64,000 nucleotides of DNA from an uncultured bacterium (GCA_903855135.1 CAINYB010000001.1:2740-66739), one strand, 5' to 3'. Counted from the stretch's first letter, positions 3,082 to 52,102 are shown. Notes: generated from the letters alone by a model not told the origin. A program made the numbers and translations.

Positions 3082-4359
3082 TTAAAAACCTTCGTAGTCA
3101 CGCATCACTAATTGAGCGTCAATTTGTTTAACAGTTTCGATCACCACCGCCACGACGATCAAGATAGAAGTGCCACCTAAAGAAATAGTCTGAATGCCAG
3201 TCAATGGTCCAATAATGATCGGTAAAACAGCTACTAGACCTAAAAACAAAGCCCCAGCAGAAATAATACGCACCATGACTTTATTTAAATACTCGGCTGT
3301 GTGTGTACCTGGTCTAATACCTGGAATAAAACCACCTTGTTTTTGTAAATTTTCTGCAATTTGTTGAGGATGAAAAATAATAGAAGTATAAAAATAGGTA
3401 AAGCCAACTACGGCTGCAAAATAGATAATACCGTAAAATAATTGATTCTTAAAGACAGTGATAATCCATTGAGAAAAATGTACTAACCAACTAGCATCAG
3501 AATTTAAGAAAAACTGAGCAATGGTTGGTGGCACAATGACAATGGAAATAGCAAAGATAATAGGAATAACACCAGCTTGATTGACACGCAAAGGTAAATG
3601 AGTGCTGACGCCACCAGCATTTCTTTGACCCACCATATGACGAGCGTAAGACACAGGAATATTACGTTGACCCTCAGTGATAATGACGATGGTGACGATA
3701 GTCACTAAGGCAATCAAAGTAAAGATGACAAAATTTAAAATCTGTGAGCTATCAAAAGCAATCAAAGTATTACCAAATGATTGTGGTAAGCTGGCTACGA
3801 TACCAGCAAAAATGATCAAAGAAATACCATTGCCGATTTTTTTCTCAGTGATTAACTCACCTAACCACATCAAAAACATACTACCAGCCACAATCATCAA
3901 TAAAGCTAAAAATACCTCAGCACTGGACATGGAGCCTAGCAAAGCACCATTAGTTTTTTGAGACAAGAGCTTGATAAAACCATAGCCCTGGATAAAAGCC
4001 AAAGGTACTGTCAATAATCTAGTATATTGGTTTAATTTTTGTTGACCATACTCGCCTTCTTTTTGCAAAGCTTCAAGCTTTGGCACGATCATAGCCAATA
4101 ATTGGAAAATAATCGAAGCCGTGATATAAGGACTGACACCTAACATCACTACAGAAAAATTCTGTAAACCACCACCAGAAAATAAATTTACCAGACCCAA
4201 AACATCATTAGCACCAAATAAACTCTTGAGGCTACTAGTGTCAACGCCAGGGATAGGGATATGAGCAGCAATTCTAAATACAATCAATAAGGCCAAAACA
4301 TAAAAGATGTTGTTACGGATCTCTTTAGCTTTCCAAATTTGTTGTAATTTTTTTAACAT
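3082..4359 (-). CDS. secY: preprotein translocase SecY
   Basis: 425 aa with 10 TM helices and SecY motifs. Confidence 0.9.
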   Translation of the reverse strand: MLKKLQQIWKAKEIRNNIFYVLALLIVFRIAAHIPIPGVDTSSLKSLFGANDVLGLVNLFSGGGLQNFSVVMLGVSPYITASIIFQLLAMIVPKLEALQKEGEYGQQKLNQYTRLLTVPLAFIQGYGFIKLLSQKTNGALLGSMSSAEVFLALLMIVAGSMFLMWLGELITEKKIGNGISLIIFAGIVASLPQSFGNTLIAFDSSQILNFVIFTLIALVTIVTIVIITEGQRNIPVSYARHMVGQRNAGGVSTHLPLRVNQAGVIPIIFAISIVIVPPTIAQFFLNSDASWLVHFSQWIITVFKNQLFYGIIYFAAVVGFTYFYTSIIFHPQQIAENLQKQGGFIPGIRPGTHTAEYLNKVMVRIISAGALFLGLVAVLPIIIGPLTGIQTISLGGTSILIVVAVVIETVKQIDAQLVMRDYEGF

Positions 4360-9921: not shown

Positions 9922-10419
9922 CTATTTCTTATTATCTTTTTTATCTTCAGTCTTAGTAGCTTTTTTTACGAGCTTCTCTTTTTTTTCTTTAGTATCTGTT
10001 TTGGCGGTTTTTTCCATATCAGCTAATTTGACAGTTTCAGCTTCCACTTTCTTTTCTTTCACTTTACTCACTACTTTAGCACCGTCTTTGGCAGTCAAAA
10101 CAACAGTGATATGAGCAGAATGTTTACGGAAAGGATGAGCTCTACCAAAAGCAGCAGGTTTAAAACGTTTTAAATCCATGCCTTTGTTGACGATGATACT
10201 TTTGATCATCAAGTCTTCTACGGCTACTTCATAACGATCTTGAGCATTAGCTACTGCTGAGCGTAATAATTTCTCAATCATTGGAGCAGATTTTTTAAAA
10301 ATGACTGGCAAACGAAATAAAGCCTGGCTCACACTCAAACCACGCACAGCACCAGCCACTAGCCTGACTTTCTTTTGTGAAACTTTAACGGAATTTAATT
10401 TTGCTTTGATCTCAATCAT
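9922..10419 (-). CDS. rplV: 50S ribosomal protein L22 with K/E-rich C-terminal extension
   Basis: Homology by inspection. Confidence 0.85.
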   Translation of the reverse strand: MIEIKAKLNSVKVSQKKVRLVAGAVRGLSVSQALFRLPVIFKKSAPMIEKLLRSAVANAQDRYEVAVEDLMIKSIIVNKGMDLKRFKPAAFGRAHPFRKHSAHITVVLTAKDGAKVVSKVKEKKVEAETVKLADMEKTAKTDTKEKKEKLVKKATKTEDKKDNKK

Positions 10420-10439
10420 AGAATTATTTTAAGCTTGCT

Positions 10440-10724
10440 TTATTTACCTTTAGTTTGAGTTTTTGCCATTTTACCACCATGACCCAAAAATTTACGGGTA
10501 GGAGCAAACTCGCCTAATTTGTGGCCGACCATGTTTTCCACTACATAAACATTAAGATGTTCTTTACCATTGTGGACACCAAAAGTAAAACCAACCATTT
10601 CTGGACTGATAGTAGAAGATCTGGACCAAGTTTTAATGATCTTACCAGCATCAGGACGTAAATTGGAAACTTTCTTTAATAATTTGGCGTCAGTAAATAG
10701 ACCTTTTTTTAAACTTCTTGACAT
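10440..10724 (-). CDS. rpsS: 30S ribosomal protein S19
   Basis: Homology by inspection. Confidence 0.9.
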
Positions 10725-39456: not shown

Positions 39457-39545
39457 GAAAAAACCTTAAAAAAATATTTTTCGCTCTTATATTATAACTA
39501 AATTTTAGCTTTTTGCCAAACCTAGCCCAACGCCACGAGGCGAGC

Positions 39546-39896
39546 TTAAAATAAATATGGCCAAAAAATCACCACACCAACTACAGCTGCTAACGCAGCT
39601 GCTATCAATACAGCCGCGGCTAATAAGTCTTTGATTTCTTTAGCAAAATGATGTGTGCTGGGTGACAGCATATCAACTAATCTTTCTAAGCTAGAATTAA
39701 AAATCTCCAAAATCAACACCAAGGCAATGACTATTAATAAAATCAAATAATCAAAACCTTGTATTCCTATGTAAGCGGCCAACATAATCACTAACAATCC
39801 AATAATGGAATGAATACGAAAATTTTTTTCTGTTTGCCAAACTTTTTTTAAACCTTTAAAAGCGAAATGGAAACTTTTTAATAAACGTTTAGTCAT
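39546..39896 (-). CDS. dgkA: diacylglycerol/undecaprenol kinase DgkA family
   Basis: SFxxAxxG...E.NFRIH motif and 3 TM helices. Confidence 0.75.
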   Translation of the reverse strand: MTKRLLKSFHFAFKGLKKVWQTEKNFRIHSIIGLLVIMLAAYIGIQGFDYLILLIVIALVLILEIFNSSLERLVDMLSPSTHHFAKEIKDLLAAAVLIAAALAAVVGVVIFWPYLF

Positions 39897-40314
39897 TTTT
39901 TATTTGTTTTAAAATTTTATTTTGCATTTGTTCTTGCTTATTATATTCTACCTCACTCTTTTCATGATCAAAACCCAACAAATGCAGGATGCCATGGGTA
40001 GTTAATAATTTTAACTCGGCACTTAAAGACTTTTTATTAGCCTCTGCTTGGCGTTTGGCTACTGGTAAACAAATCACCACTTCACCTAAAATAGCAGTGG
40101 AATCAAGATTAAAAGACAAGACATCAGTTACTTTATTTTTATGACGATAAACTCTATTTAAATTTTTTATTTCTAATTCCGAAACCAGAGCTAAAGAAAT
40201 AGCTTGTTTTAATTTAAATTTTTTAGCAATAATAGCTTCTAATTTTTTGAGCCAAGAAAAATTAGCTTTTTGTCCTCGCTTATTTAAATAGATAGCGAAA
40301 TTATTATTTGACAT
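39889..40314 (-). CDS. ybeY: rRNA maturation endoribonuclease YbeY
   Basis: HGxLHLxGxDH motif. Confidence 0.9.
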   Translation of the reverse strand: MSNNNFAIYLNKRGQKANFSWLKKLEAIIAKKFKLKQAISLALVSELEIKNLNRVYRHKNKVTDVLSFNLDSTAILGEVVICLPVAKRQAEANKKSLSAELKLLTTHGILHLLGFDHEKSEVEYNKQEQMQNKILKQIKND

Positions 40315-41366
40315 TATTTTAACAAACTAAAACTATTTAGCATCATTAAATAAGTATTAGCAAAATATGGCTTTGATTCTGTTTCTATGTGATAAGTAAA
40401 TTTAATAAAATAATTATTTACTTTAGCAAATACCGTATAAGCATCAGCTATTTTGCTTTGTAGAGCACTAATCTTTGCTTCTTTACCTAAAGTCAAAGAC
40501 GAAAGAGTAGCACCGTCAGCCTTACTTTGAGCCCAGGCTTGCAAAGTTTGATTTGCTACCACCGCTTCAGCACTAATGCTCATAAAATCACCAGTACCAG
40601 AATCAGGAGTAAACATAATCTCTAAATCATTACCCTCTATTGCTTGGCTGAGCCAATTTTTTGGCTTTAATAAAAGATACTTGACAGTTTGATTACTAAA
40701 TTGAGTAATCAAACTAGAATGCACTAAGGCTTGATTTGATAAAAGTGGATTATATAAATTCATCACTTCCACGCCATCTTTATAACCATCGTTATCAGTA
40801 TCTTCATCGTTATTATTAGTGCCAAAAATTAACTCTTCCTCAACGCTTAAATCATCACTGTCTTGATCAAAATTATTACTTGTCGGTGGTGGTGGCGGCG
40901 GTGGTGGAGTCACTTGTCCATTATTAGCTGGCTCATTGTTATTGCCTTGATTAACTGGCGTGGTGCTAGTGGTGGTTGTGGCCACAACTTCTGGAACTGA
41001 TTGCTCCTCTTCTTTTGGCGGCTCTACAATATTTTGATTATTAGCTTGATTTTGTGTATTATTTTGATCAGTTTTTGCTTGATTATTAGAAACTGATAAA
41101 TTCGCAAATAAAAGCATTGAGCCTACTACAATCAATAAAAAAACCACAAAAGCGATGCTACCCAAAATAATCTTTTGTTTATTGCTTAATTGTTTTTTTG
41201 GAGAAGTCGGTAAAAATTTTTGTGGCATAACATGAATAGCGTCTTGACTAATTACTATTTCTTTTTCTTTACCTATTTCTTGATTAACAATCGTATTAAT
41301 CTCGTTCGACATTTTTTGATTGTCGATTTGAGTTTGATCTTGAAAATTGTCTTGTTCGTTAGGCAT
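40314..41366 (-). CDS. single-pass membrane protein: N-in, N/Q/T-rich linker, poly-Pro, thrombospondin-type-3-like DxDxDG calcium-binding repeat, plus a ~150 aa C-terminal domain
   Basis: PPPPPPPP is encoded by the (GGT/GGC)n tract at 40885-40909. DEDTDNDGYKDGVEVMNLYNPL is homologous to the C-terminus of the next gene. Confidence 0.55.
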   Translation of the reverse strand: MPNEQDNFQDQTQIDNQKMSNEINTIVNQEIGKEKEIVISQDAIHVMPQKFLPTSPKKQLSNKQKIILGSIAFVVFLLIVVGSMLLFANLSVSNNQAKTDQNNTQNQANNQNIVEPPKEEEQSVPEVVATTTTSTTPVNQGNNNEPANNGQVTPPPPPPPPTSNNFDQDSDDLSVEEELIFGTNNNDEDTDNDGYKDGVEVMNLYNPLLSNQALVHSSLITQFSNQTVKYLLLKPKNWLSQAIEGNDLEIMFTPDSGTGDFMSISAEAVVANQTLQAWAQSKADGATLSSLTLGKEAKISALQSKIADAYTVFAKVNNYFIKFTYHIETESKPYFANTYLMMLNSFSLLK

Positions 41367-41374
41367 ATTTTATT

Positions 41375-42106
41375 TTATTTTGCTAATAAACCATCCCCAT
41401 TGGGATTATATCCATTTTGTACCTCTACCCCATCCAAATAAGTATCATTATCCGTATCTGGATCCAAAGCATTTGTCTGGTGAGTAAAAATCTCCACTTT
41501 ATCATATAAACCGTCATTATCCGTATCTGGATTTACTGGTGATGTTCTATGAATTCTCACTTCATCTTTATCTGATAAACCATCGTCGTCGGTATCTGCT
41601 AGTCTTGGATCAGAACCAAGTCCAGTTTCCTCTGCATTACTCAAACCATCAGAATCATCATCTAAAATCACTTCTGGCTGATTTTGAGTATTATTATTTG
41701 TAGGATTATTTTCAGCTGGCTGATTTTGAGTATTATTATTTGTAGGATTGTCAGTATTTTCAGTACTTTTTTTCGAGACAAAAAAAGAATATGCGCCCCA
41801 GATAACTAGAGTAAGTAATATCAAACCAGATAAAGCAACGAAAACTTTCTTCATAATCGCACTCTGACTATGCTCATCTTCCATCAAAATGGGATTGGGT
41901 ATATTAGGATTTGTAGGCATCGGCGGTAAATTCATAGGACTTGGTTTTACTTGCAATTTAGCAGCTGAAATAGCACTTGGTTTTTCTACAGCACCAAACA
42001 TATCATCTACCGCCGACACTGGTGCTGGCGATGGACTCGCAGTCGTAGGTTGCGAAGAAAAATCTTGACTAGGCGTAGCATCGCCTTTTTTTACATCATC
42101 AAACAT
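41375..42106 (-). CDS. single-pass membrane protein with three TSP3-like calcium-binding repeats, ending ...YNPNGDG; paralog of the upstream gene
   Basis: DSDGLSNAEE...DTDDDGLSDKDE...DTDNDGLYDKVE...DTDNDTYLDGVE, and a 42-bp tandem duplication at 41676-41759. Confidence 0.6.
   Translation of the reverse strand: MFDDVKKGDATPSQDFSSQPTTASPSPAPVSAVDDMFGAVEKPSAISAAKLQVKPSPMNLPPMPTNPNIPNPILMEDEHSQSAIMKKVFVALSGLILLTLVIWGAYSFFVSKKSTENTDNPTNNNTQNQPAENNPTNNNTQNQPEVILDDDSDGLSNAEETGLGSDPRLADTDDDGLSDKDEVRIHRTSPVNPDTDNDGLYDKVEIFTHQTNALDPDTDNDTYLDGVEVQNGYNPNGDGLLAK
41676..41759 (-). repeat. 2 x 42-bp tandem repeat (ggctgattttgagtattattatttgtaggatt...) encoding NPTNNNTQNQP(A/E)x2
   Basis: Seen directly in the sequence. 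Confidence 0.8.
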
Positions 42107-42118
42107 AGCTCAAATAAT

Positions 42119-45100
42119 TTAATTTTGATTATTATTGTTGTTCATTGGCTGCTGCCAGAGACAAAGTAAAGGAAGGGTGTGATCGCACCGTGGCCATGTA
42201 TTTTCATTCATAGATAAAAATGATCCTCCACTCCAAGTTATGTCAGGATTAGAATTAGGATTAGGACTAATCTTACTGGTCTCACCTAAACGACCCCGGT
42301 TCACACAATCATTTATATATCTAATGTTTTCAAAACTATTCGTATAATCATGACAAAAATTCTCCTCAGAATCCATGTTGCAAATTTCACCACTCATAGC
42401 AATACCAGGATAATAAATGCTTCCATCATATTTGGTACCACTCCAAAAAATGCAACCTTGCGCTGTGCAATCATTTATTGGATTATTCATGGCAGTTTGC
42501 TCACCATTTTCAAGTCTATTAATCGCATTATCTAATGTCGTATCTGTTAAATCCGTCCAATCATCGGCTATCACAGTGCCATTAGTCATCTTATACTCTA
42601 AAGAATTATGTGCTAATCTACTGCCAGCCGAAGTATCAAAGTCAGATAGCCAAGCTTTCCAAATACCTTCTCTAGCTAGGCTATTCTGTGAATCTGCATG
42701 CCATTGACATAAATAATCAGCTGCTGCCAAACCATCAGAGCCACTATAGCCCTTATTTGTTGCTGCGCCCAACAAATTACCATTATATGCAGTGGAAGTC
42801 AGAAATATTGTGGCCCCATCTGACTCGGCTATTTCAGAACAATTACTTTGATTAAAATTACAAGACGCATTACAACTTAAACTACCTTGATCCCAACCAA
42901 AATCTTGGCAAGTTTGGTTGTTTAAATTTGAACCATCGCATTGCTCTGGAGGGTTAATCACCCCATTACCACAGTTGGGTGGTGGTGGTGGCAGTGACTC
43001 TTCATCAGAACAATCGCTAAGATCGAAATTACATTGATTACAACTTAAATTACCATAATCATAATCAAAAGCAGTGCAATCTTTACCCGCTAAGTTAGTA
43101 GTATCACATTCCTCACTGGGATTTATCACTCCATCACCACAACTAGCTGGGCTGGCCACACTGCCATCGCTGCAAACTGGCGTACAAGTATTACAAGTGG
43201 CTGTCTGACCATCCAAACACGAGTACTCCTCTACAACCGTGTTGTTTCCCTCACATGTTTCATAAGGGTCATCTAAAATATGATCACCGCAATAGCCACC
43301 ACACATAGCCTCGGTCAAAATCGGCCATGGCTCATACCAAGTACATTCTATGGAGTTACCATCTGCATCCAAAGAGCCGGCTGGGTAACAGCCACCTAAA
43401 TGCTCATTCCACCAATCCTGGTTATTATCAGGCTCTGGAGTTGTATCACATAAATTTTGGAAACCACCATCGCACTCTTCTGCACCATCAACAACGCCAT
43501 TACCACAACCCAAACTACCCTGTGGTAAACCATTAAAAGAAGCGTTGCATTGTGGATTATTTAAATGAATATGTTCATCTAAGTCTGGAATAGTATAATT
43601 ATTAGGATAGACAAATTCAAAGTTAGCATCTAAAGAATAATTATAACCACCCTCATTTTTATAAAAATAAATACTCGAATTTAAAGGACAGGTGAATCTA
43701 TTGATTTCATCATTCCAACAAGTTTCTTCATCAAAACCATCTGGGCAAGCACTAAAGCGATTCAATGGGTCTACTGGCAATGACATACCTAAAACGTTAG
43801 AAAATTCTTGTTGCCAAGATGGCCAAGGGCTAACTGCTATGTGAGGTACATAAGTACCGGCATTCAATAATGGATAATAAGGCACACAATCACCCCCACT
43901 TGGACACTGACTATCTTGCGTGCAACTAATATTAGCATTATTATTACAGAATTTATAATTATTACTATAGGCTTTTAATTTATTTTGAATACTTAATAAA
44001 TCACCTAAGCGCTGATTATCGCGACGTAATTTATCACCATCAGCGTCACAATTTCCTTGATTTGGGCAATCAAATTTACTAGAACAACTAATACTAGCAT
44101 CGCTACTACAAACTCCCATATTAGAAACATTTGTACTCAAATGTAAATTAGACAACATTTGACTGACAATATCGGCTGTGGACTCTCTTGCTCCAATGCT
44201 ATAAGAAATCATGTAAATATTACTATATACACTACCACCATTTACATCCACCACATTCAAGGCGTTAATATAGATAGTATTACCAACTTTAAGTGCTGGG
44301 TAGCCATCTATCACTTGCGCTTGGCCTGCTATTTCTGGATTTGGTGCATATTTTGTATACCAGTCACTCAAGGCTAAATGTTCTTCATTTTTCATCACTC
44401 GAACGCCTATTACATCCAAAGAAGAAGCTTTAGCAGTGACCGCAATTTCATTAGTCGCCGCTGATTCTCCACCCATGTTATAAGCTGTCACACGATAGCT
44501 ATAGACTTCGTTATTTATAACATTGTTATCCGTAAAATTAATTGGATTTTGATTACCGCTATCAACAGTTGCTATTTTATACCAATCAACTGTGCTCGAT
44601 TTACGATAAATATTAAAACCATCTTCGTTAGTAGCATTATCTGTCCAAGCTAATTTTACGCCATCAGCACTATTATCAGCTAAAAGTAAACTAGTAGGCG
44701 CACTTGGGATAGCAATTGCAGCTAAAACAGTATTTTTAACTTTAGCAAATAAATTTTGCCACCAATAATTTTTTGTATTTTCCTCACTTTTTGCAATAAC
44801 TGTTTGTTTAGGATCAACGATAAAAATAAATTCTCTTAAAGTTTGACCATTAGGTGGCAAAATATTTGGGGAACCTAAATATGGTAATAAGGGCTCATTC
44901 ACTCGACCAGAATCTTGACAATAATAGGTACTAAAATTATACAAATCATTAAAATCATAAGGAAAATTACTAGCTTGTCTTGGCCACGGATGTTCGCATA
45001 AAAACAAATCTACTTGTGCACTACCCAGTGCGCTACCAGCTAGCTCATCGCTAACTTCAACTATTAAGTTAGTTTGACCATTTTTATTTAGCGCTGTAGC

Positions 45101-48100
45101 TAAAATAGTTTGCTGGTTATCACTTTCTAAGTCTAAAAAGTCATTGTTTTCCTGCCAAGCATAATCAGTCATCACCAATGGTGATCCACTAGGATCATAA
45201 GCTATCGCTGTATAACTATGTTGATTGCCACTCAAAGCATCAGCCACATCACCCAGACAATTACTTCTACTACAACTAAATAAATCTGGATTAGGAGCAA
45301 CAGTGACAAAACTCACGCGACACATTTGATTATTTGTCTCAAAAAGCCAAATGTAAGCGTCCATACTACCATTATCATCGCTATCAAAATTTAATTGTTC
45401 AGTAACCAAATTAACACCCATATTACTTTTTACTCTTCCAGAGACTAAAGATAAATACTCAGTACTAGCTTGTAATGGTGAAACTGGATATAAAAACGCT
45501 TTGCTTTTGTCACTATTATTAGTAAAGACAAAATTTGTTTCCACCGGGCAATACCACTGGAAATCTTTCTTGACACAATAACCAGGTAATTCTTCACTGG
45601 CAGATTTTTTATATAAACGCATACCTGCTTCTAGGCTAGCACGATCCATCAAAGTATTAAATTGCACTTCTATGGCTGAATTTAAACAAGCTGGAGTTTG
45701 CGGTTTTGGGGTTGGGACTATTTTTGGAGCTGTATAAACTAAAGTATCTCCAAAATCTACTTCTAATATTGCCTGATCTTCTAATGTATAACTAGACAAA
45801 GAGGCATTAACACGCGTCATACCTTCTGCTTGTGGCCTAATGTCAGCACGATAAATATTTGATGGTATTAAATCAGCTATCCCAGCAGGATTCAAACTCC
45901 AATTATATGGGCTATACGACATTGGGTTTAAAATTTGACCATGAGGGTCACAGGCGTTAGCTGTGCTATATGGAAAAGCTGAATAATTAATCATCGAATC
46001 ATCAGTGGCTAAATAATAGCTTGGGTCAATCTCCAAAGACGTAGGCGTACAAGCCCCATCTTTATTGGTTTGAAAACTCCAGCTAAAAGGTGCGCTGATT
46101 TTATAACCAGCAATATTTTTTAACTCTTGTTTTAACTCTACTTTATAATATGTTTCAGGAATAAAATCACTATGCAAAATAGCGACTCTACGACCATCTA
46201 CCGAAACATCAAAACTAGTAACTAAATTAGCACCAGTAAGTAAAGCACAAGTTGAATCTGTACATTTTTTTATAACAATATTATCATACAAATTACTTTC
46301 TGAAATAGCTGTATTAAAATCTACCCAAACTAAAGCATTTGTACAGGAGCTATTACAATTTGGACCATAATCAACAACTTCTAAGACAGCATCTTTTATC
46401 TTTGGATAAGCATAAGACATAAGGCCGTTTAATTGAGCTTTGACTGTAACTGTAGCTGGTGTACTATTTTCTGTCACCTGTGTGCCCTCAACTTTTACTT
46501 TAGCAATATTAGTATTCTGGGTTCTGAACCAGCCAATATTTGCCTTATCGGCGTTTGAGCCCTCTAAAGACCAAGCCGACCAATTATAATTACTACCACA
46601 AATATTACAATTTCCCCCAATTGGGCTAGCACTAAACTCTCTTTCATGACCAACATAAATATCTGCACTCGGACTATCAGTCGGAGTCACTGCTATGCTG
46701 ACGACTTGGCAAAGATTTTCTTGTGCTCTAAAATGCCAATCATAAGTAGCACCAGACCAAGTCTCACTACCACTAGCTTTATTAAACTCTCCTAAAGCTA
46801 CTTTATACCAACGATTAGGTGTTAAATTTATTCCGGGATTTAAAACAAAACCTTCTTGATTACTATTATGATTAATAATCGTGAGATTAACTGCTATATT
46901 TTCCACACAATCCGCCGAATTAAAAGCACCGCCAGTATTACAAGCAAATAATTTCAAATTACTAGTAGTATTAAAATCTGCATCTTCAACATCAGCGTTA
47001 AACATACCCGTGATATTTGTATCTAAATAAGCGTCGGTTGCGCCTGGCCAAGGAGAAGGTGAAGAAAGATTATGAACAGCTGGATCACAAGCAAGCTCTT
47101 GCAAAGAAAATGGATCAGCAGCAGTGGTGATTGTCCAAGAATAGCTACAAGACAAATCTGCTGGGCAATGACCAAGTGGCGCGCAATAGTTACCAGTTGC
47201 TTCTTGACAACATTCATTACCAGACACACATTGAGTGTTATTAGTGCAAGTTGCCACTGAAAAATTCAAGCCATTGCTGTCTTGAGCACCAACTCTAACT
47301 TTAGTAGGACCAGTCACCGCTCCATTAGGTACCCTGACATTAATCAATTGATCACTCCAAGAATTAATCTCGCTTGAGACTCCACTACTAAAATATACAT
47401 GATCGCTAACATTACCAAAATTATCACCATATAAAGTGACATCAAAAACACCATTGGCTGGACCATTATTTGGGTCCATAAAACACAAGCCTGGACCAGG
47501 AGCACCAATGCTCATATTAAAATTATAGGCATTACTTTGCTCTGAGTCTGAACTACGTATAACTTTGATTTGATAAGGGCCCGATGCCAAATTAGGAGCT
47601 TTGACAACGATGCTATCATTGCGCCAATAATTAGCTAAACATTGAGCTGGAAAATCAAAATCACCCAAGTCAAAAGTACCATCTGGTTTAATGAACCTTA
47701 CGCTACCAGCAATATTACCAAAATTACTACCTATAATAGTTAAATATTGCCCAGCTGGTGCATTATCTGGGTTTATTGAATTGATAATCGGTGCGCCGCC
47801 ACCGGCTACCTCAACACTAAATGGTAGCTCATTACTACTTTTATCAGCAGTATTCTTGAACCAAACACTAAGCTCACCAGCAGATAAATTCGGAACTACT
47901 AAATTAGCTTTTTGAGGATTATCATAAGAAAATGTTCCATTTACTCCGCCAAAAAAGGCACTATCTGTATTATTAAAATTAAAACCATGAGCAACAACTG
48001 CTTCACCAAAACTACCAGAAGTTGGCTCTAATTTACACAAACTAGGTGCTTCTTCGCCAGAATCATTAAAAATCTTAGAATTACTCTCTCTTTCATCTAC

Positions 48101-49492
48101 ATGTCGCACAAAAATGTTAGCACTGGTATCACGAACTTCAGCTGGAACTACTATAACGATTAAATTATCACTCCAATAGTCTGTACAAGCCGAATTTACG
48201 TCATGTGGATCTATACCAAACTTCTCATTACCATCTGCACCTTCAAAAACTACTCGACCGCCACTAGAGCCAAATCCCGAACCATAAACACTAACAATAG
48301 AGCCCTCTTTAGATATTTCTGGACTTATTCTAGTGATTACTGGCCCATCACTTTCAGTGGCTGCACTAAGACAAAAATTTTCATCCACACAAGCATTAGC
48401 CGCACAACAGCCAGACGCACAGTCATTTGGGCCATTGTCACACAAAACATTAAAATCTTCCGGTGCTGATTGTATCTCATTCACTTCCACAAACAGATCC
48501 CCAGACAAAGCATTCATAGGCACAATGGCATTGGTAATTTTAGTATCTGTCCACGTACCAATACTACCAAAACGATTCGATTGCCAAACGTTACCGTCCC
48601 AATTAAAAATATCAACAAAACCAGAATCACCAAAGCCAATACCCTCTATCATGATACCTTCACCACGACGTTGAGTATTTGGCGTCACGCAAGCAATGCC
48701 TGGACCAGGCTCGCCCTCTCTGACTTCAAAAGTAGCTAAATCTGGGTAAGAGCCTTCTTTATTACTAGCAGTATTAATTTTTATCCGATAATTGCCCAAA
48801 GCCACGTTAGGTACAATGGCTTTAATGCGAAAATAGTTATTTGGGCGATTATTAAGACGATTCCAAGCAGCTTGACCATTGCAGTTAATCAGACTAGCTT
48901 CTTGAATCACACCACTACCATCAAATTTTACTTTACTATTTACCGCATTATAAGTTTCAAAATTCCAACCTTCAATAGTAATATATTGACCAATAGTAGC
49001 ACTATTAGCATTTGGTTTAACTTTACAAATTCTAACTGAACCATCATCTGGTGCTGGACAATCTGGAGGAACTACAATCGGATTAATAATAGTACCACCA
49101 TTGTTATTATTACTATTGGGATTAGTGGCCTCATATAATTTATTCAAAACAAAACTAGCGATCGCATAAGCAGATAAAATAATCACCAAGCCGATCACCG
49201 CACTAACAATAATACCTTTAGCAGTTTTTATTTTTTCTTCATCACCACGAGAAGTCATCCATAAATAACCAGCATATAGAATCAAGACAACAGCCAAGAC
49301 TCCCAAAAAACCTAAAAATATATTAATAATATTAGCAATCACCTGCTTTAGGTCTGACTGAGCCAGATTGACTCCAGCGTTTGTCAGATCATTTACTCCA
49401 GTCACATCATTACTTTGGGCTAAAACTAAATTGGCTTTAAGGAGAATTAAAGTCAGAAATGAAAGTAGAGACCAAAAAATTTTTTTATTCAT
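42119..49492 (-). CDS. giant (2457 aa) cell-surface protein: signal peptide + VirB2/TrbC-pilin-like two-helix anchor, ~6 IPT/TIG-like beta-sandwich domains, Cys-rich linkers, FN3 domain, 4 Myxococcus-type cysteine-rich repeats (CGNGxxDxxEECD), C-terminal DUF1554/lectin-like domain
   Basis: One uninterrupted 7.4-kb ORF. Domain motifs: GFG/GSGFG IPT signatures, LAWTDNATNEDGFNIYRK (FN3), CGNGVVDGAEECDGG, and ATIFLTSTAYNGNLLG...ADYLC. Confidence 0.8.
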   Translation of the reverse strand: MNKKIFWSLLSFLTLILLKANLVLAQSNDVTGVNDLTNAGVNLAQSDLKQVIANIINIFLGFLGVLAVVLILYAGYLWMTSRGDEEKIKTAKGIIVSAVIGLVIILSAYAIASFVLNKLYEATNPNSNNNNGGTIINPIVVPPDCPAPDDGSVRICKVKPNANSATIGQYITIEGWNFETYNAVNSKVKFDGSGVIQEASLINCNGQAAWNRLNNRPNNYFRIKAIVPNVALGNYRIKINTASNKEGSYPDLATFEVREGEPGPGIACVTPNTQRRGEGIMIEGIGFGDSGFVDIFNWDGNVWQSNRFGSIGTWTDTKITNAIVPMNALSGDLFVEVNEIQSAPEDFNVLCDNGPNDCASGCCAANACVDENFCLSAATESDGPVITRISPEISKEGSIVSVYGSGFGSSGGRVVFEGADGNEKFGIDPHDVNSACTDYWSDNLIVIVVPAEVRDTSANIFVRHVDERESNSKIFNDSGEEAPSLCKLEPTSGSFGEAVVAHGFNFNNTDSAFFGGVNGTFSYDNPQKANLVVPNLSAGELSVWFKNTADKSSNELPFSVEVAGGGAPIINSINPDNAPAGQYLTIIGSNFGNIAGSVRFIKPDGTFDLGDFDFPAQCLANYWRNDSIVVKAPNLASGPYQIKVIRSSDSEQSNAYNFNMSIGAPGPGLCFMDPNNGPANGVFDVTLYGDNFGNVSDHVYFSSGVSSEINSWSDQLINVRVPNGAVTGPTKVRVGAQDSNGLNFSVATCTNNTQCVSGNECCQEATGNYCAPLGHCPADLSCSYSWTITTAADPFSLQELACDPAVHNLSSPSPWPGATDAYLDTNITGMFNADVEDADFNTTSNLKLFACNTGGAFNSADCVENIAVNLTIINHNSNQEGFVLNPGINLTPNRWYKVALGEFNKASGSETWSGATYDWHFRAQENLCQVVSIAVTPTDSPSADIYVGHEREFSASPIGGNCNICGSNYNWSAWSLEGSNADKANIGWFRTQNTNIAKVKVEGTQVTENSTPATVTVKAQLNGLMSYAYPKIKDAVLEVVDYGPNCNSSCTNALVWVDFNTAISESNLYDNIVIKKCTDSTCALLTGANLVTSFDVSVDGRRVAILHSDFIPETYYKVELKQELKNIAGYKISAPFSWSFQTNKDGACTPTSLEIDPSYYLATDDSMINYSAFPYSTANACDPHGQILNPMSYSPYNWSLNPAGIADLIPSNIYRADIRPQAEGMTRVNASLSSYTLEDQAILEVDFGDTLVYTAPKIVPTPKPQTPACLNSAIEVQFNTLMDRASLEAGMRLYKKSASEELPGYCVKKDFQWYCPVETNFVFTNNSDKSKAFLYPVSPLQASTEYLSLVSGRVKSNMGVNLVTEQLNFDSDDNGSMDAYIWLFETNNQMCRVSFVTVAPNPDLFSCSRSNCLGDVADALSGNQHSYTAIAYDPSGSPLVMTDYAWQENNDFLDLESDNQQTILATALNKNGQTNLIVEVSDELAGSALGSAQVDLFLCEHPWPRQASNFPYDFNDLYNFSTYYCQDSGRVNEPLLPYLGSPNILPPNGQTLREFIFIVDPKQTVIAKSEENTKNYWWQNLFAKVKNTVLAAIAIPSAPTSLLLADNSADGVKLAWTDNATNEDGFNIYRKSSTVDWYKIATVDSGNQNPINFTDNNVINNEVYSYRVTAYNMGGESAATNEIAVTAKASSLDVIGVRVMKNEEHLALSDWYTKYAPNPEIAGQAQVIDGYPALKVGNTIYINALNVVDVNGGSVYSNIYMISYSIGARESTADIVSQMLSNLHLSTNVSNMGVCSSDASISCSSKFDCPNQGNCDADGDKLRRDNQRLGDLLSIQNKLKAYSNNYKFCNNNANISCTQDSQCPSGGDCVPYYPLLNAGTYVPHIAVSPWPSWQQEFSNVLGMSLPVDPLNRFSACPDGFDEETCWNDEINRFTCPLNSSIYFYKNEGGYNYSLDANFEFVYPNNYTIPDLDEHIHLNNPQCNASFNGLPQGSLGCGNGVVDGAEECDGGFQNLCDTTPEPDNNQDWWNEHLGGCYPAGSLDADGNSIECTWYEPWPILTEAMCGGYCGDHILDDPYETCEGNNTVVEEYSCLDGQTATCNTCTPVCSDGSVASPASCGDGVINPSEECDTTNLAGKDCTAFDYDYGNLSCNQCNFDLSDCSDEESLPPPPPNCGNGVINPPEQCDGSNLNNQTCQDFGWDQGSLSCNASCNFNQSNCSEIAESDGATIFLTSTAYNGNLLGAATNKGYSGSDGLAAADYLCQWHADSQNSLAREGIWKAWLSDFDTSAGSRLAHNSLEYKMTNGTVIADDWTDLTDTTLDNAINRLENGEQTAMNNPINDCTAQGCIFWSGTKYDGSIYYPGIAMSGEICNMDSEENFCHDYTNSFENIRYINDCVNRGRLGETSKISPNPNSNPDITWSGGSFLSMNENTWPRCDHTLPLLCLWQQPMNNNNNQN

Positions 49493-49584
49493 GATAATAT
49501 AGCTAAAATTTTATTTTAATTTGTTTACTCCCCGTCTAATGCCTGCCTGTCGGTAGGCAGAGCAGTCAAACGGCACACGCTGCA

Positions 49585-51159
49585 TTAATCGCTCTCACAC
49601 CTCGAACCAAGAACGCAATCTGGCGAAGGATCCCCTTCACAAACACAAGATCGGCCAGTAGGATCTTGACAAACACAAGGTTGAAAACAATTTTGATAAA
49701 CATCTTTGATATCTGAAGTCAAAGTTGGCTTATAAGATGTGTAGGATTTTAAACGATCATGAGATATTTTGATTTGACGTCCACTAGCCACACTTAGCCA
49801 ATAATTTATTGGATTATTCGGTGATTCCACAAAAGTAATATTATCACTATTGATAGAGGCAGTCATAAGACTTTTATCAAAAATGATGTTAATTGGTGAG
49901 TTTGTAGGAACGGCATTGTTATCTTCCATGGAACTAATTTTTGGTGGCACCAAATCAATCGTATTATTAGTATTAAATGCCCAGACATAATCAGCGGCTA
50001 GCGAATTATCTGCCATATCTTTGATATTAGTCGTGACAGTAGAAGCTAAACTAGCTGAGGCTGGTAGACAATATACATTACCTCCGCAAGAATTAGTACC
50101 ACAAAGATCATCAGTCACAAATTCTACGGTTCTGTATTGATTTGCTATCCGATAAGTACCAGCTAAAATAGTAGCTGCCTGTTTAACATTGATATTAGTA
50201 AAGGCTGGTGCTAGGCCACTAGCTAAAAGTGGATTTATACTTTCAGAAAAATTCACCTGCACAATAGTATTACGAGGATTAATAGTGTCAGCCACTGGTA
50301 TCACTGAAACTACAGTTGGTGGTGTCAAGTCTATCTCTTCACTGACAGTAAAATTCCAATCATAGCCATTTAAACCAAAGGCTGATTCGCCACTATCTTT
50401 CCTAATCTCATTGGACAAAGAAAAATTGTAACTAGTATTTTGGTTAGCTGCTCCTAAATAAGACCCTGGATCACTACCAAATGGATTTAAAGCCAAAACT
50501 TTATGGTCTTCACTTAAAATAGCTTGTAAGGAATTATTATCAAAAATTTGATCAGTAGTATTATTTTTTAATATAAGATTATTTGCCTTGGCACAGGTGC
50601 CATAAGAACAATCAAATAATAAATCTTCGGACTTAATGGCTTCTTTGAAAGTAATATAAATATTAGTATTACGCGGAATATCTTCAGCATTACGCATCGG
50701 ATAATGACTTTCAATCACACCATTACCAATACCAATACCTCCATGATAACCACCGCCACCATCAGCTCCACCGCCACCACCAAAAGTACCATCAAATAAA
50801 GCTTTTAAAATAAAACTAGCGATCGCATAAGCAGCGAGCGTAATAGCTAAGCCAATAGCGGTATCTACCATAATTTTTTTAGCCTTTTCTAGCTTAGCTG
50901 CTTCACCATTGGCCGTCATCCATAACCAACCAGCATAGAGAAATAATAAGACCGCCAAAGTCCCTAAAAATCCCAAAATAATATTAATAATATTGGCGAT
51001 CACTTGTTTTAAATCTGTTTGCCCCAAATTTACTCCAGCGTTAGCCAGGTCGTTAACCCCTGTAACATCGTTACTTTGTGCTAACAAGTCTTTTGGTAAC
51101 AAAAAAATAACTGCTAATAAAACAATTAGAAAAACAGTTATTCTCTTTAATTTAAGCAT
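49585..51159 (-). CDS. surface protein (524 aa) with the same signal peptide + VirB2/TrbC-pilin-like anchor, Gly-rich linker, bacterial Ig-like (SbsA-type) domains and a Cys-rich C-terminus
   Basis: Its N-terminal 125 aa are ~70% identical to the giant protein N-terminus. DLTPPTVVSV is an Ig-like domain start. Confidence 0.75.
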   Translation of the reverse strand: MLKLKRITVFLIVLLAVIFLLPKDLLAQSNDVTGVNDLANAGVNLGQTDLKQVIANIINIILGFLGTLAVLLFLYAGWLWMTANGEAAKLEKAKKIMVDTAIGLAITLAAYAIASFILKALFDGTFGGGGGADGGGGYHGGIGIGNGVIESHYPMRNAEDIPRNTNIYITFKEAIKSEDLLFDCSYGTCAKANNLILKNNTTDQIFDNNSLQAILSEDHKVLALNPFGSDPGSYLGAANQNTSYNFSLSNEIRKDSGESAFGLNGYDWNFTVSEEIDLTPPTVVSVIPVADTINPRNTIVQVNFSESINPLLASGLAPAFTNINVKQAATILAGTYRIANQYRTVEFVTDDLCGTNSCGGNVYCLPASASLASTVTTNIKDMADNSLAADYVWAFNTNNTIDLVPPKISSMEDNNAVPTNSPINIIFDKSLMTASINSDNITFVESPNNPINYWLSVASGRQIKISHDRLKSYTSYKPTLTSDIKDVYQNCFQPCVCQDPTGRSCVCEGDPSPDCVLGSRCESD

Positions 51160-51182: not shown

Positions 51183-51620
51183 TTATAAAGCAAGTTTTGC
51201 TTTTACTAACTTTTGTACTAATTGGCCATCGGCCTGACCCTTGGTTTGAGTTATTACTTCTTTCATCACTAAACCAAAACTATTTACTCCAGACGCAATA
51301 ACACTATCAACGATTTTAGTAACATCTTCTTCTGACATTAAGGCTGGTAAATAAGCCTCTATGATAATAGCTTCAGCTTTTTCTTGATCCGCTAAATCAT
51401 GACGTCCGGCCGACTCAAAAGCTAAAATAGAGTCTTGTCTTTTTTTCAACTCACGACGTAAAACTAGACCAACTTCTTCATCGTTGAGTTCAGTTTGTTT
51501 TTTGGCAATCGCTTCATTTTTGAGAGCACTCTTTAACATCCTTAAAACAGATAGCTTCAGAGCGGCTTGCTCTTTCAAAGCATTTTTAAAGTCTATTTCA
51601 ATATTTTGTGCTAAAGACAT
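51183..51620 (-). CDS. GatB/YqeY domain protein
   Basis: Whole-length match to the YqeY family. Confidence 0.8.
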   Translation of the reverse strand: MSLAQNIEIDFKNALKEQAALKLSVLRMLKSALKNEAIAKKQTELNDEEVGLVLRRELKKRQDSILAFESAGRHDLADQEKAEAIIIEAYLPALMSEEDVTKIVDSVIASGVNSFGLVMKEVITQTKGQADGQLVQKLVKAKLAL

Positions 51621-51673: not shown

Positions 51674-51931
51674 CTATTTACCGTAACGTTTGGTTAAAAA
51701 ATCGTCTAATTTGCCAATGCGTTTCAAATATTCTACTTTGCCTGACATGTCTAAACGACGTAAAGCACTTTCTTTTTGCTTACGTTTTGAGCTATCTTTG
51801 CTATAAAAACGAACCTTTTTGGCTTGCAAAATCTTACCACTTTGAATAGTTTTCTTGGTAAAACGACGAACCATGTTTTCAAAAGATTCATTATCTTTGC
51901 GTTTGACTTCCAACACTTGGATGCACCTCAC
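51674..51931 (-). CDS. rpsU: 30S ribosomal protein S21 (start probably the GTG at ~51916 after a GAGGTG Shine-Dalgarno); basic C-terminal extension
   Basis: VLEVKRKDNESFENMVRRFTKK matches the S21 N-terminus. Confidence 0.75.
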   Translation of the reverse strand: MRCIQVLEVKRKDNESFENMVRRFTKKTIQSGKILQAKKVRFYSKDSSKRKQKESALRRLDMSGKVEYLKRIGKLDDFLTKRYGK

Positions 51932-52102
51932 TTTCTAAATTTTTTAAAAAGGAATATAGGCAATTTCTTTCCATATTCTTACCATTATAATGACAAATTT
52001 TTTGACAAAAGTCAAGGTGTAAAAAACTACACTAGCTGTGGATAACTCACAATATTTCTTATAAAAAATACCCCCGCCAGAGGGTATTTATTATTTAAAA
52101 TT

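Follow-up and report, generated by a model that had tools for sequence, protein, structure and literature searches.

In Myxococcus, the partner of the stalked surface receptor in the outer-membrane-exchange pair TraA/TraB holds the complex in place in the envelope and contains thrombospondin type 3 (TSP3) repeats (PMC12045341), and the same article cites Dai et al. (2017) for the TSP3 linker of OmpA-family proteins, which contains an intra-repeat disulfide. VirB2-like pilins are widespread in the Patescibacteria, and proteins with a type IV secretion system (T4SS) pilin domain are highly expressed in Paceibacteria enrichments (PMC12102498; PMC10936435). The present analysis concerns two adjacent genes, for proteins of 243 and 350 amino acids (aa), in a 64,000-nucleotide (nt) stretch of DNA from an uncultured bacterium (GCA_903855135.1, CAINYB010000001.1:2740-66739), here called the window; coordinates refer to the window unless another locus is named. 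Both proteins combine a single transmembrane (TM) helix with TSP3 repeats, and their genes directly follow those of two VirB2-like surface proteins, one of them a giant of 2457 aa. It is still poorly understood how the ultra-small Patescibacteria, most of them uncultured, attach to other cells and live on them, and to our knowledge candidate surface machinery of these bacteria is known only for a few Saccharibacteria. The reading favored here, and offered tentatively, is that the two proteins belong, as calcium-stiffened stalks or as docking subunits, to a conserved surface module that has not been described. The analysis places two "hypothetical proteins" in a defined, testable module whose almost invariant gene order recurs in eight or more candidate phyla of the Parcubacteria group. 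A first-pass annotation of the window had already singled out the pair, and its account proved largely correct; the corrections concern orientation, the exactness of a repeat and paralogy.

The 243-aa protein is encoded by an open reading frame (ORF) at 41375-42106 (minus strand), which precedes its partner in the direction of transcription. The start codon is set by MFDDVKK, an invariant N-terminal motif that, like DDMF and KPSA, is conserved in the tail in an alignment of homologues. Residues 1-87 are probably cytoplasmic and precede a TM helix at residues ~88-110 (41777-41845, minus strand), where the Kyte-Doolittle 19-residue maximum is 2.24 at residue 88. The N/Q/T-rich linker that follows contains a 34-nt exact direct repeat with a 42-nt period (41674-41749, minus strand), encoding NPTNNNTQNQP twice. 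An exact-repeat scan of the gene found that the final 8 nt of the two 42-nt units differ, and the duplication is thus shorter than the perfect 42 bp first ascribed to it; it was rightly taken as recent, since the second copy is missing from relatives with 65-85% protein identity, which also makes it lineage-specific. Beyond the linker, four DxDxDGxxDxxE units at residues 149, 171, 194 and 217 form a TSP3 array (residues 149-240; 41387-41662, minus strand) that ends in the conserved cap DGVEVQNGYNPNGDGLL. The Pfam model for bacterial repeats, TSP3_bac (PF18884), matches the protein in four stretches with 36.2 bits against a threshold of 25, which places it in that family. The Asp, Gly and Glu ligand positions of the repeats are invariant across 13 homologues with identities down to 45%. 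Searches recovered 536 homologues, the full-length ones occurring throughout the Patescibacteria; the OmpA domain PF00691, seen together with PF18884, and the beta-barrel family PF13505 were confined to partial-coverage matches from other phyla. The best NCBIfam matches, CglD (NF033765) and MtsD (NF047639), reach 30.8 bits against cut-offs of 400 and 800 and cover the repeats only.

The 350-aa protein (40314-41366, minus strand), second of the pair, has a single TM helix at residues 62-93 (41088-41183, minus strand), with a Kyte-Doolittle maximum of 2.79 and a helix in an AlphaFold2 (AF2) model. The tail motifs of its family are SNEINxIVNQEIGK and HVMPxKFLP, the latter present in the window protein as HVMPQKFLP just before the helix. 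Three K/R residues flank the helix on the N-terminal side and one on the C-terminal side, and this Lys-rich N-terminal flank indicates an N-in topology. One strongly hydrophobic segment and an N/Q/T/P-rich low-complexity linker are found in each protein, as first annotated, and neither protein contains a cysteine. In the 350-aa gene a tract encoding Pro8 (40884-40907, minus strand; CCA CCA CCG CCG CCA CCA CCA CCG) is present as reported; it had been described as a pure repeat and potential slippage site, but its longest run of identical codons is three, which leaves only modest slippage potential. Close and intermediate homologues retain six to eight prolines at this place, which points to a conserved polyproline spacer and not to a contingency locus.

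The polyproline tract is followed by the TSP3 segment (residues 167-207; 40746-40868, minus strand), which comprises a degenerate unit at residue 167, DQDSDDLSVEEE, and a canonical unit at residue 189, DTDNDGYKDGVE. Residues D167, D169, D171, E177, E178, D189, D191, D193, D197 and E200 are at least 90% conserved among 98 family representatives, and 51 of these 98 members match PF18884 at E<=0.01. From the conservation of their acidic ligand positions, the repeats of both proteins are predicted to bind calcium. The eukaryotic TSP_3 model, PF02412, which had been proposed as a check on the repeats, finds no match at E<=1 in either of the two proteins, whose repeats are of the cysteine-free kind. 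Scans against Pfam and NCBIfam found no wall-binding domain of the OmpA_C (PF00691), LysM, SPOR or SLH type in either protein, and no match to the beta-barrel family PF13505; neither protein therefore belongs to the OmpA family. NCBIfam assignments to MapZ, GltJ, FliL, IcmG/DotF and SrfA were considered and rejected, with scores of 12-20 bits against cut-offs of 150-700 and matches to TM or low-complexity sequence only.

The additional C-terminal domain recognized in the first-pass annotation spans ~142 aa (residues 209-350; 40317-40742, minus strand) and has a PsbP/Mog1-like fold, which is generally a protein-binding module. The AF2 model of the protein (m915db816b460), built from 19 sequences, has predicted local distance difference test (pLDDT) values in this domain that lie mostly at 85-94 per 10-residue block, with dips to 73-74 at residues ~251-260 and ~331-340. 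In Foldseek searches of the PDB with this head domain, CyanoP and PsbP ranked highest (E 7e-6, probability 1.0, target-normalized TM-score 0.57-0.60), and further matches were to SciW/Eag, Tsi3, Apa and LpqN; sequence identity to these solved structures is 9-15%. A second model, of homologue P0009, reproduces the PsbP-like fold. Among the 98 family representatives, 14 match Pfam PsbP (PF01789) and ten match PsbP_2 (PF18933), with best E values of 2e-6 and 3.5e-7, respectively. Most homologues (P0006-P0017; e.g., P0009, L001 10001-11317) carry an extra domain of ~90 aa between the TM helix and the polyproline tract that resembles the pseudopilin GspG/EpsG, to which its eight best PDB profile matches belong (best E 1e-4; fold probability 0.99-1.0). 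This domain is missing from the window protein and its nearest relatives (79-100% identity), a lineage that has lost it. A PsbP-like domain was also sought within the giants: an HMM (hidden Markov model) built for this analysis gave weak matches there (E 1e-5 to 6e-4), but BLASTP against the window giant gave E 0.4, and the candidate was dropped. One strong "giant" match, P0140, from a search of 1.84 billion proteins proved to be an artefact in which a 55-aa repeat summed many weak matches.

The two proteins had been annotated as tandem paralogues. BLASTP between them gives E=1e-7 over 44 aa, confined to the TSP3 region, and confirms the common motif DTDND(G/T)YxDGVEVxNxYNP; the pair can be aligned over only 44-66 aa, and beyond the repeats the likeness is one of general architecture, so that a recent tandem duplication is not supported. 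Each protein aligns over its full length with its own orthologues in Komeilibacteria, Falkowbacteria and the unclassified Patescibacteria metagenome-assembled genome (MAG) L008, each family has its own tail motifs, and the families are already separate in Komeili-, Falkow-, Uhr- and Nomurabacteria. The presence of both side by side in Komeilibacteria, Falkowbacteria and L008 implies that the split predates the radiation of the Parcubacteria group, and the two are best regarded, on their alignments, as distinct ancient orthologous families. The family of the 350-aa protein is much the smaller, with 19 matches in the k-mer search; its C-terminal domain retrieved 99 cluster representatives at E<=1e-3 from the 1.84 billion proteins, nearly all of them 300-500 aa long with the domain at the C terminus. 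The idea that HxMPxKF or MFDDVK might be a general Patescibacteria sorting signal was discarded, as these motifs were found only in the two families among 4456 ORFs from 89 sequences (88 loci and the window).

Immediately upstream of the pair in transcription order is the giant gene (42119-49492, minus strand), preceded by a gene for a 524-aa protein (49585-51159, minus strand). The first-pass annotation had placed the pair directly upstream of these genes; as all lie on the minus strand, the TSP3 genes are directly downstream (3') of them. The shared orientation with the surface-protein genes and ybeY, and the short spacing, were correctly described: 12 nt separate the giant from the 243-aa gene, and 8 nt the 243-aa from the 350-aa gene. 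In the 2457-aa giant, a signal peptide and a VirB2-like hairpin are combined with IPT/TIG, Big_5 and fn3-like domains, and the C-terminal part is rich in cysteine; the Pfam scores of the giant are 38.7 bits for T4SS_pilin (threshold 26.6), 91.7 for TIG and 59.2 for Big_5, and the NCBIfam model for pilin-like Mbov_0395 gives 36.3 bits. The 524-aa protein scores 80.6 bits for Big_5, and 25.0 and 23.4 bits for T4SS_pilin and TrbC, both just below threshold; the VirB2-like N terminus noted earlier is confirmed in both neighbors, above threshold in the giant and slightly below it in the smaller protein. In other genomes, giants with a complete N terminus carry the VirB2-like hairpin, and eight of ten tested pass the T4SS_pilin threshold.

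Around giant residues ~2117-2250 (43085-43144, minus strand, and nearby) there are cysteine-rich acidic repeats of the CGNG..E.CD type; the Myxococcus cysteine-rich repeat model TIGR02232, which represents the repeat type forming the TraA stalk, gives 16.7 bits against the giant, below its threshold of 20.8. A regular-expression count found two to six DxDxDG motifs in each of the giant ORFs of L020, L025, L037, L056 and L077, and TSP3-type repeats may be used inside some giants as well. Between the 524-aa gene and the giant lie 92 nt (49493-49584, minus strand) that are unusually GC-rich and can form a long hairpin with a minimum free energy of -24.3 kcal/mol; against shuffled sequence its stability is not significant (z = -1.9), and it was set aside as an element.

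A scan covered one genome per GTDB species, which yielded 80 loci whose ORFs were searched with HMMs built from the window genes; the counts below refer to the 49 species-representative loci that bear a PsbP-domain gene and, for upstream genes, to the evaluable subsets of these. The order giant, one or two TM-TSP3 genes, TSP3-PsbP gene and ybeY-dgkA-ftsA-ftsZ is almost invariant. All 32 evaluable loci have an ORF of at least 1000 aa among the four genes upstream (in one it was at first hidden by masked bases), and a small TSP3 ORF precedes the PsbP-domain gene in 38 of 39. On the other side, ybeY follows immediately in 46 of the 49 loci and dgkA after it in 44, and ftsA is found within four genes downstream in 46. 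The lineages represented include Nomura-, Magasanik-, Uhr-, Kuenen-, Kerfeld-, Falkow-, Buchanan- and Komeilibacteria, all in the Parcubacteria group. Six loci fetched through individual homologues share a single order, with a VirB2-like 520-aa protein, a giant that is also VirB2-like, one to three small TSP3 genes, a TSP3/PsbP gene and ybeY-dgkA, continued in five of the six by ftsA-ftsZ-nrdR; a Falkowbacteria locus keeps the giant, the TSP3 and PsbP genes, ybeY and dgkA without ftsA-ftsZ. Median gaps as called are 20 nt between giant and TSP3 gene, 7.5 nt between TSP3 and PsbP genes, and -4 nt both between the PsbP gene and ybeY and between ybeY and dgkA, followed by 47.5 nt for dgkA-ftsA and 115 nt for ftsA-ftsZ. 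Operon-like spacing is thus found in the window and across ~45 species.

In some lineages an extra gene stands between the giant and the TSP3 gene (L002 8432-9157; L006 9261-9980); it is absent from the window, and its product of ~240 aa has an N-terminal TM helix and regularly spaced cysteines with no Pfam match. Many third-party annotation (TPA) MAGs with the cluster (L012, L017, L019, L020, L022 and others) are titled "uncultured Gammaproteobacteria bacterium", and these titles are very probably mislabelled. A literature search found no account of the cluster or of either protein family, and the cluster is described in neither of the two articles on Patescibacteria pilins cited above.

In the window the conserved stretch is transcribed in the order rpsU, yqeY, 524-aa gene, giant, 243-aa gene, 350-aa gene, ybeY, dgkA, and then ftsA, ftsZ and nrdR, and ORF calls put everything from rpsU through dgkA on the minus strand. 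The rpsU gene (51674-51916, minus strand; ribosomal protein S21, Pfam 36.2 bits) encodes 80 aa and had fallen below the 100-aa limit of the first ORF list; it is followed by yqeY (51183-51620, minus strand; Pfam YqeY 135.6 bits). Downstream of the pair are ybeY (39889-40314, minus strand; Pfam YbeY 111 bits) and dgkA (39546-39896, minus strand; Pfam DAGK_prokar 109 bits); read from the sequence, the 350-aa gene overlaps ybeY by 1 nt (TAATG), and ybeY overlaps dgkA by 8 nt. A promoter-like site matching the consensus (TTGACT-17-CATTAT, extended TG; 51987-52015, minus strand) lies upstream of rpsU and is itself preceded by a terminator-like hairpin (52071-52083), and rpsU-yqeY is the probable head of a transcription unit that contains the TSP3 genes. 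Within this unit the giant, the 243-aa and 350-aa genes and ybeY are probably co-transcribed. The best promoter-like site of the region, with 11 of 12 positions matched, lies inside the 89-nt dgkA-ftsA gap (39491-39519, minus strand); together with the wider gaps beyond dgkA, it suggests that ftsA-ftsZ form a separate transcript. Further downstream, after nrdR, there is an adenosylcobalamin (AdoCbl, B12) riboswitch (36272-36402, minus strand; Rfam RF01482, 53.8 bits against a threshold of 50), followed by a 129-aa ORF without a Pfam match and a protein of 590 aa in which Prenyltrans/SQHop_cyclase-like and DUF4430 domains occur; this gene pair also follows nrdR in several related loci.

In the arrangement that we tentatively propose, both TSP3 proteins would be bitopic envelope proteins with the N terminus in the cytoplasm and the C terminus outside, expressed together with the giants from the promoter-like site upstream of rpsU-yqeY; they are probably part of the surface layer through which the cell attaches. 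The repeats would wrap calcium ions and so turn rigid only outside the cell. The 243-aa protein would form a calcium-stiffened stalk ending in the conserved GYNPxGxG cap, and the 350-aa protein would add a PsbP/Mog1-like head beyond a polyproline rod. In physical contact with the giant immunoglobulin (Ig)-repeat proteins, the two would hold or organize these at a fixed distance from the membrane, and their conserved cytoplasmic motifs may link them to an intracellular partner. A more far-reaching version, which we think rather improbable as a whole, is that the block from rpsU-yqeY to dgkA ahead of ftsA-ftsZ encodes an undescribed surface organelle, a calcium-dependent host-attachment apparatus found throughout the Parcubacteria, in which the TSP3 proteins couple the giants to a cytoplasmic partner through their N-terminal peptides and possibly coordinate attachment with growth or division.

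Several results weigh against the stalk-and-docking proposal. The TSP3 assignment, correct for the 243-aa protein, is less secure for its partner, which PF18884 matches in one stretch with 19.5 bits, below the threshold of 25, and the 350-aa protein of the window itself has no Pfam PsbP match at E<=1. The promoter and terminator calls are consensus matches, which overall are no commoner than expected by chance. Inheritance may be all that lies behind the gene order, since synteny extends over the entire region between rpsU-yqeY and nrdR; should the link to the giants amount to inherited order and nothing more, the proteins remain ordinary calcium-binding envelope spacers. Finally, in two Patescibacteria MAGs the site lacks both giants and a PsbP-domain gene, yet a TM-TSP3 gene stands there between yqeY and ybeY, so that the co-occurrence with giants foreseen in the first-pass annotation is strong in the Parcubacteria group but not obligatory.

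These two loci bear most directly on the chief alternative, that the pair have no tie to the giants and serve the envelope at large as spacers or wall anchors. They would then be calcium-binding struts running from the membrane to the wall or a surface layer (S-layer), much like the TSP3 linker of OmpA-family proteins, encoded in an old rpsU-yqeY...ybeY-dgkA housekeeping operon, and in the Parcubacteria group the giant genes would simply have been inserted beside them. In L089 the gene is intact and encodes 164 aa (10001-10495; PF18884, 45.9 bits), and in L083, from a record labelled Saccharibacteria, a homologous TM-TSP3 gene (3260-3790) is interrupted by an in-frame TAA, which could reflect a pseudogene, an assembly error or read-through. 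The arrangement implies that a TM-TSP3 protein can exist at this site without adjacent giants, and that a TM-TSP3 gene ahead of ybeY is older or more widespread than the association with giants; giants may be encoded elsewhere in these two genomes. An attempt to place the 164-aa protein in the 243-aa or the 350-aa family failed, with matches in the TM region only. The spacer explanation also gains from the gaps, which are tightest with ybeY, from the membership of dgkA in an envelope-lipid enzyme family, and from the TSP3 linkers of OmpA-type proteins among the matches. Against it stand the giants upstream in every evaluable Parcubacteria-group locus, the lack of an OmpA_C, LysM, SPOR or SLH domain in either protein, and the PsbP-like head, which points to a protein partner. 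Giant-free examples number just two, of which one may be a pseudogene, and a metagenome scan for more returned five loci, none with the order yqeY-TSP3-ybeY and one of which is another full module. On balance we consider the spacer explanation unlikely, though more probable than the alternatives that follow.

The position ahead of ftsA-ftsZ raises a further alternative, in which the pair would be divisome-associated bitopic proteins whose tail peptides bind FtsA or FtsZ while the ectodomain marks or bridges the envelope at the division site. In FtsN and MapZ a cytoplasmic peptide is joined through one TM helix and a low-complexity linker to a module outside the cell, and both window proteins resemble them in architecture as well as in lying near ftsA-ftsZ; their conserved cytoplasmic motifs likewise imply an intracellular partner. 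The resemblance is an analogy only: the match to the MapZ model (NF047909) reaches 20.2 bits where the cut-off is 700, and is confined to the TM and low-complexity region, and neither a SPOR domain nor a MapZ ectodomain is present. Since ftsA has a strong promoter-like site of its own and stands behind larger gaps, and the Falkowbacteria locus keeps the module without ftsA-ftsZ, a role in division seems quite improbable. Least probable of all is that the pair are export or assembly helpers, with the PsbP/DUF1795-like head chaperoning hydrophobic or pilin-like segments as Eag/SciW do for effector TM domains, and so holding the VirB2-like hairpin or the nascent giant during secretion: the significant fold matches include SciW/Eag (DUF1795) and Tsi3, the gene for the head lies directly downstream of those for the pilin-anchored giants and longer homologues have a pseudopilin-like domain, but Eag chaperones are cytoplasmic whereas the head is predicted to be extracellular and kept off the membrane by the polyproline/TSP3 stalk, and PsbP proteins fit it better than Eag (TM-score 0.57-0.60 versus 0.46-0.55).

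Set beside described systems, the stalk and docking subunits proposed here combine familiar parts in an unfamiliar order. The head shares the alpha-beta-alpha sandwich of PsbP, CyanoP and PsbP_2 and of the wider Mog1-PsbP-like fold (DUF1795 Eag, Tsi3, LpqN, Apa), but, unlike PsbP, it belongs to a non-photosynthetic organism and is fused to a TM helix, polyproline and a TSP3 stalk. The ~90-aa domain of the longer 350-aa homologues is like the type II secretion pseudopilin GspG/EpsG, except that in these homologues neither a class III signal peptide nor a prepilin cleavage motif is present, and the domain comes after an ordinary TM helix that itself follows a long cytoplasmic tail. With the TSP3 linker of OmpA-family proteins the pair share tandem acidic DxDxDGxxDxxE units in an extracytoplasmic linker segment; they differ in having neither a beta-barrel nor OmpA_C, in being anchored by an N-terminal membrane helix, and in repeats that end in a GYNPxGxG cap or a PsbP-like domain, and without cysteines they cannot form the OmpA-type intra-repeat disulfide. 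Myxococcus CglD and MtsD are, similarly, TSP3-containing surface proteins that act in adhesion or cohesion, but the scores against them are far under the cut-offs and come from the repeats only, and CglD is a lipoprotein model of 1124 positions. The nearest functional precedent is TraA/TraB, in which a large stalked surface receptor is likewise encoded with a smaller TSP3 partner; the partners have no homology beyond the repeats, TraB being a beta-barrel plus OmpA protein of a diderm, whereas the window partners are bitopic and their giant has a VirB2-like hairpin as its anchor. The repeats themselves are thus of a known kind, and it is the TM-(pseudopilin)-polyproline-TSP3-PsbP architecture and its near-invariant order with VirB2-anchored giants that are undescribed.

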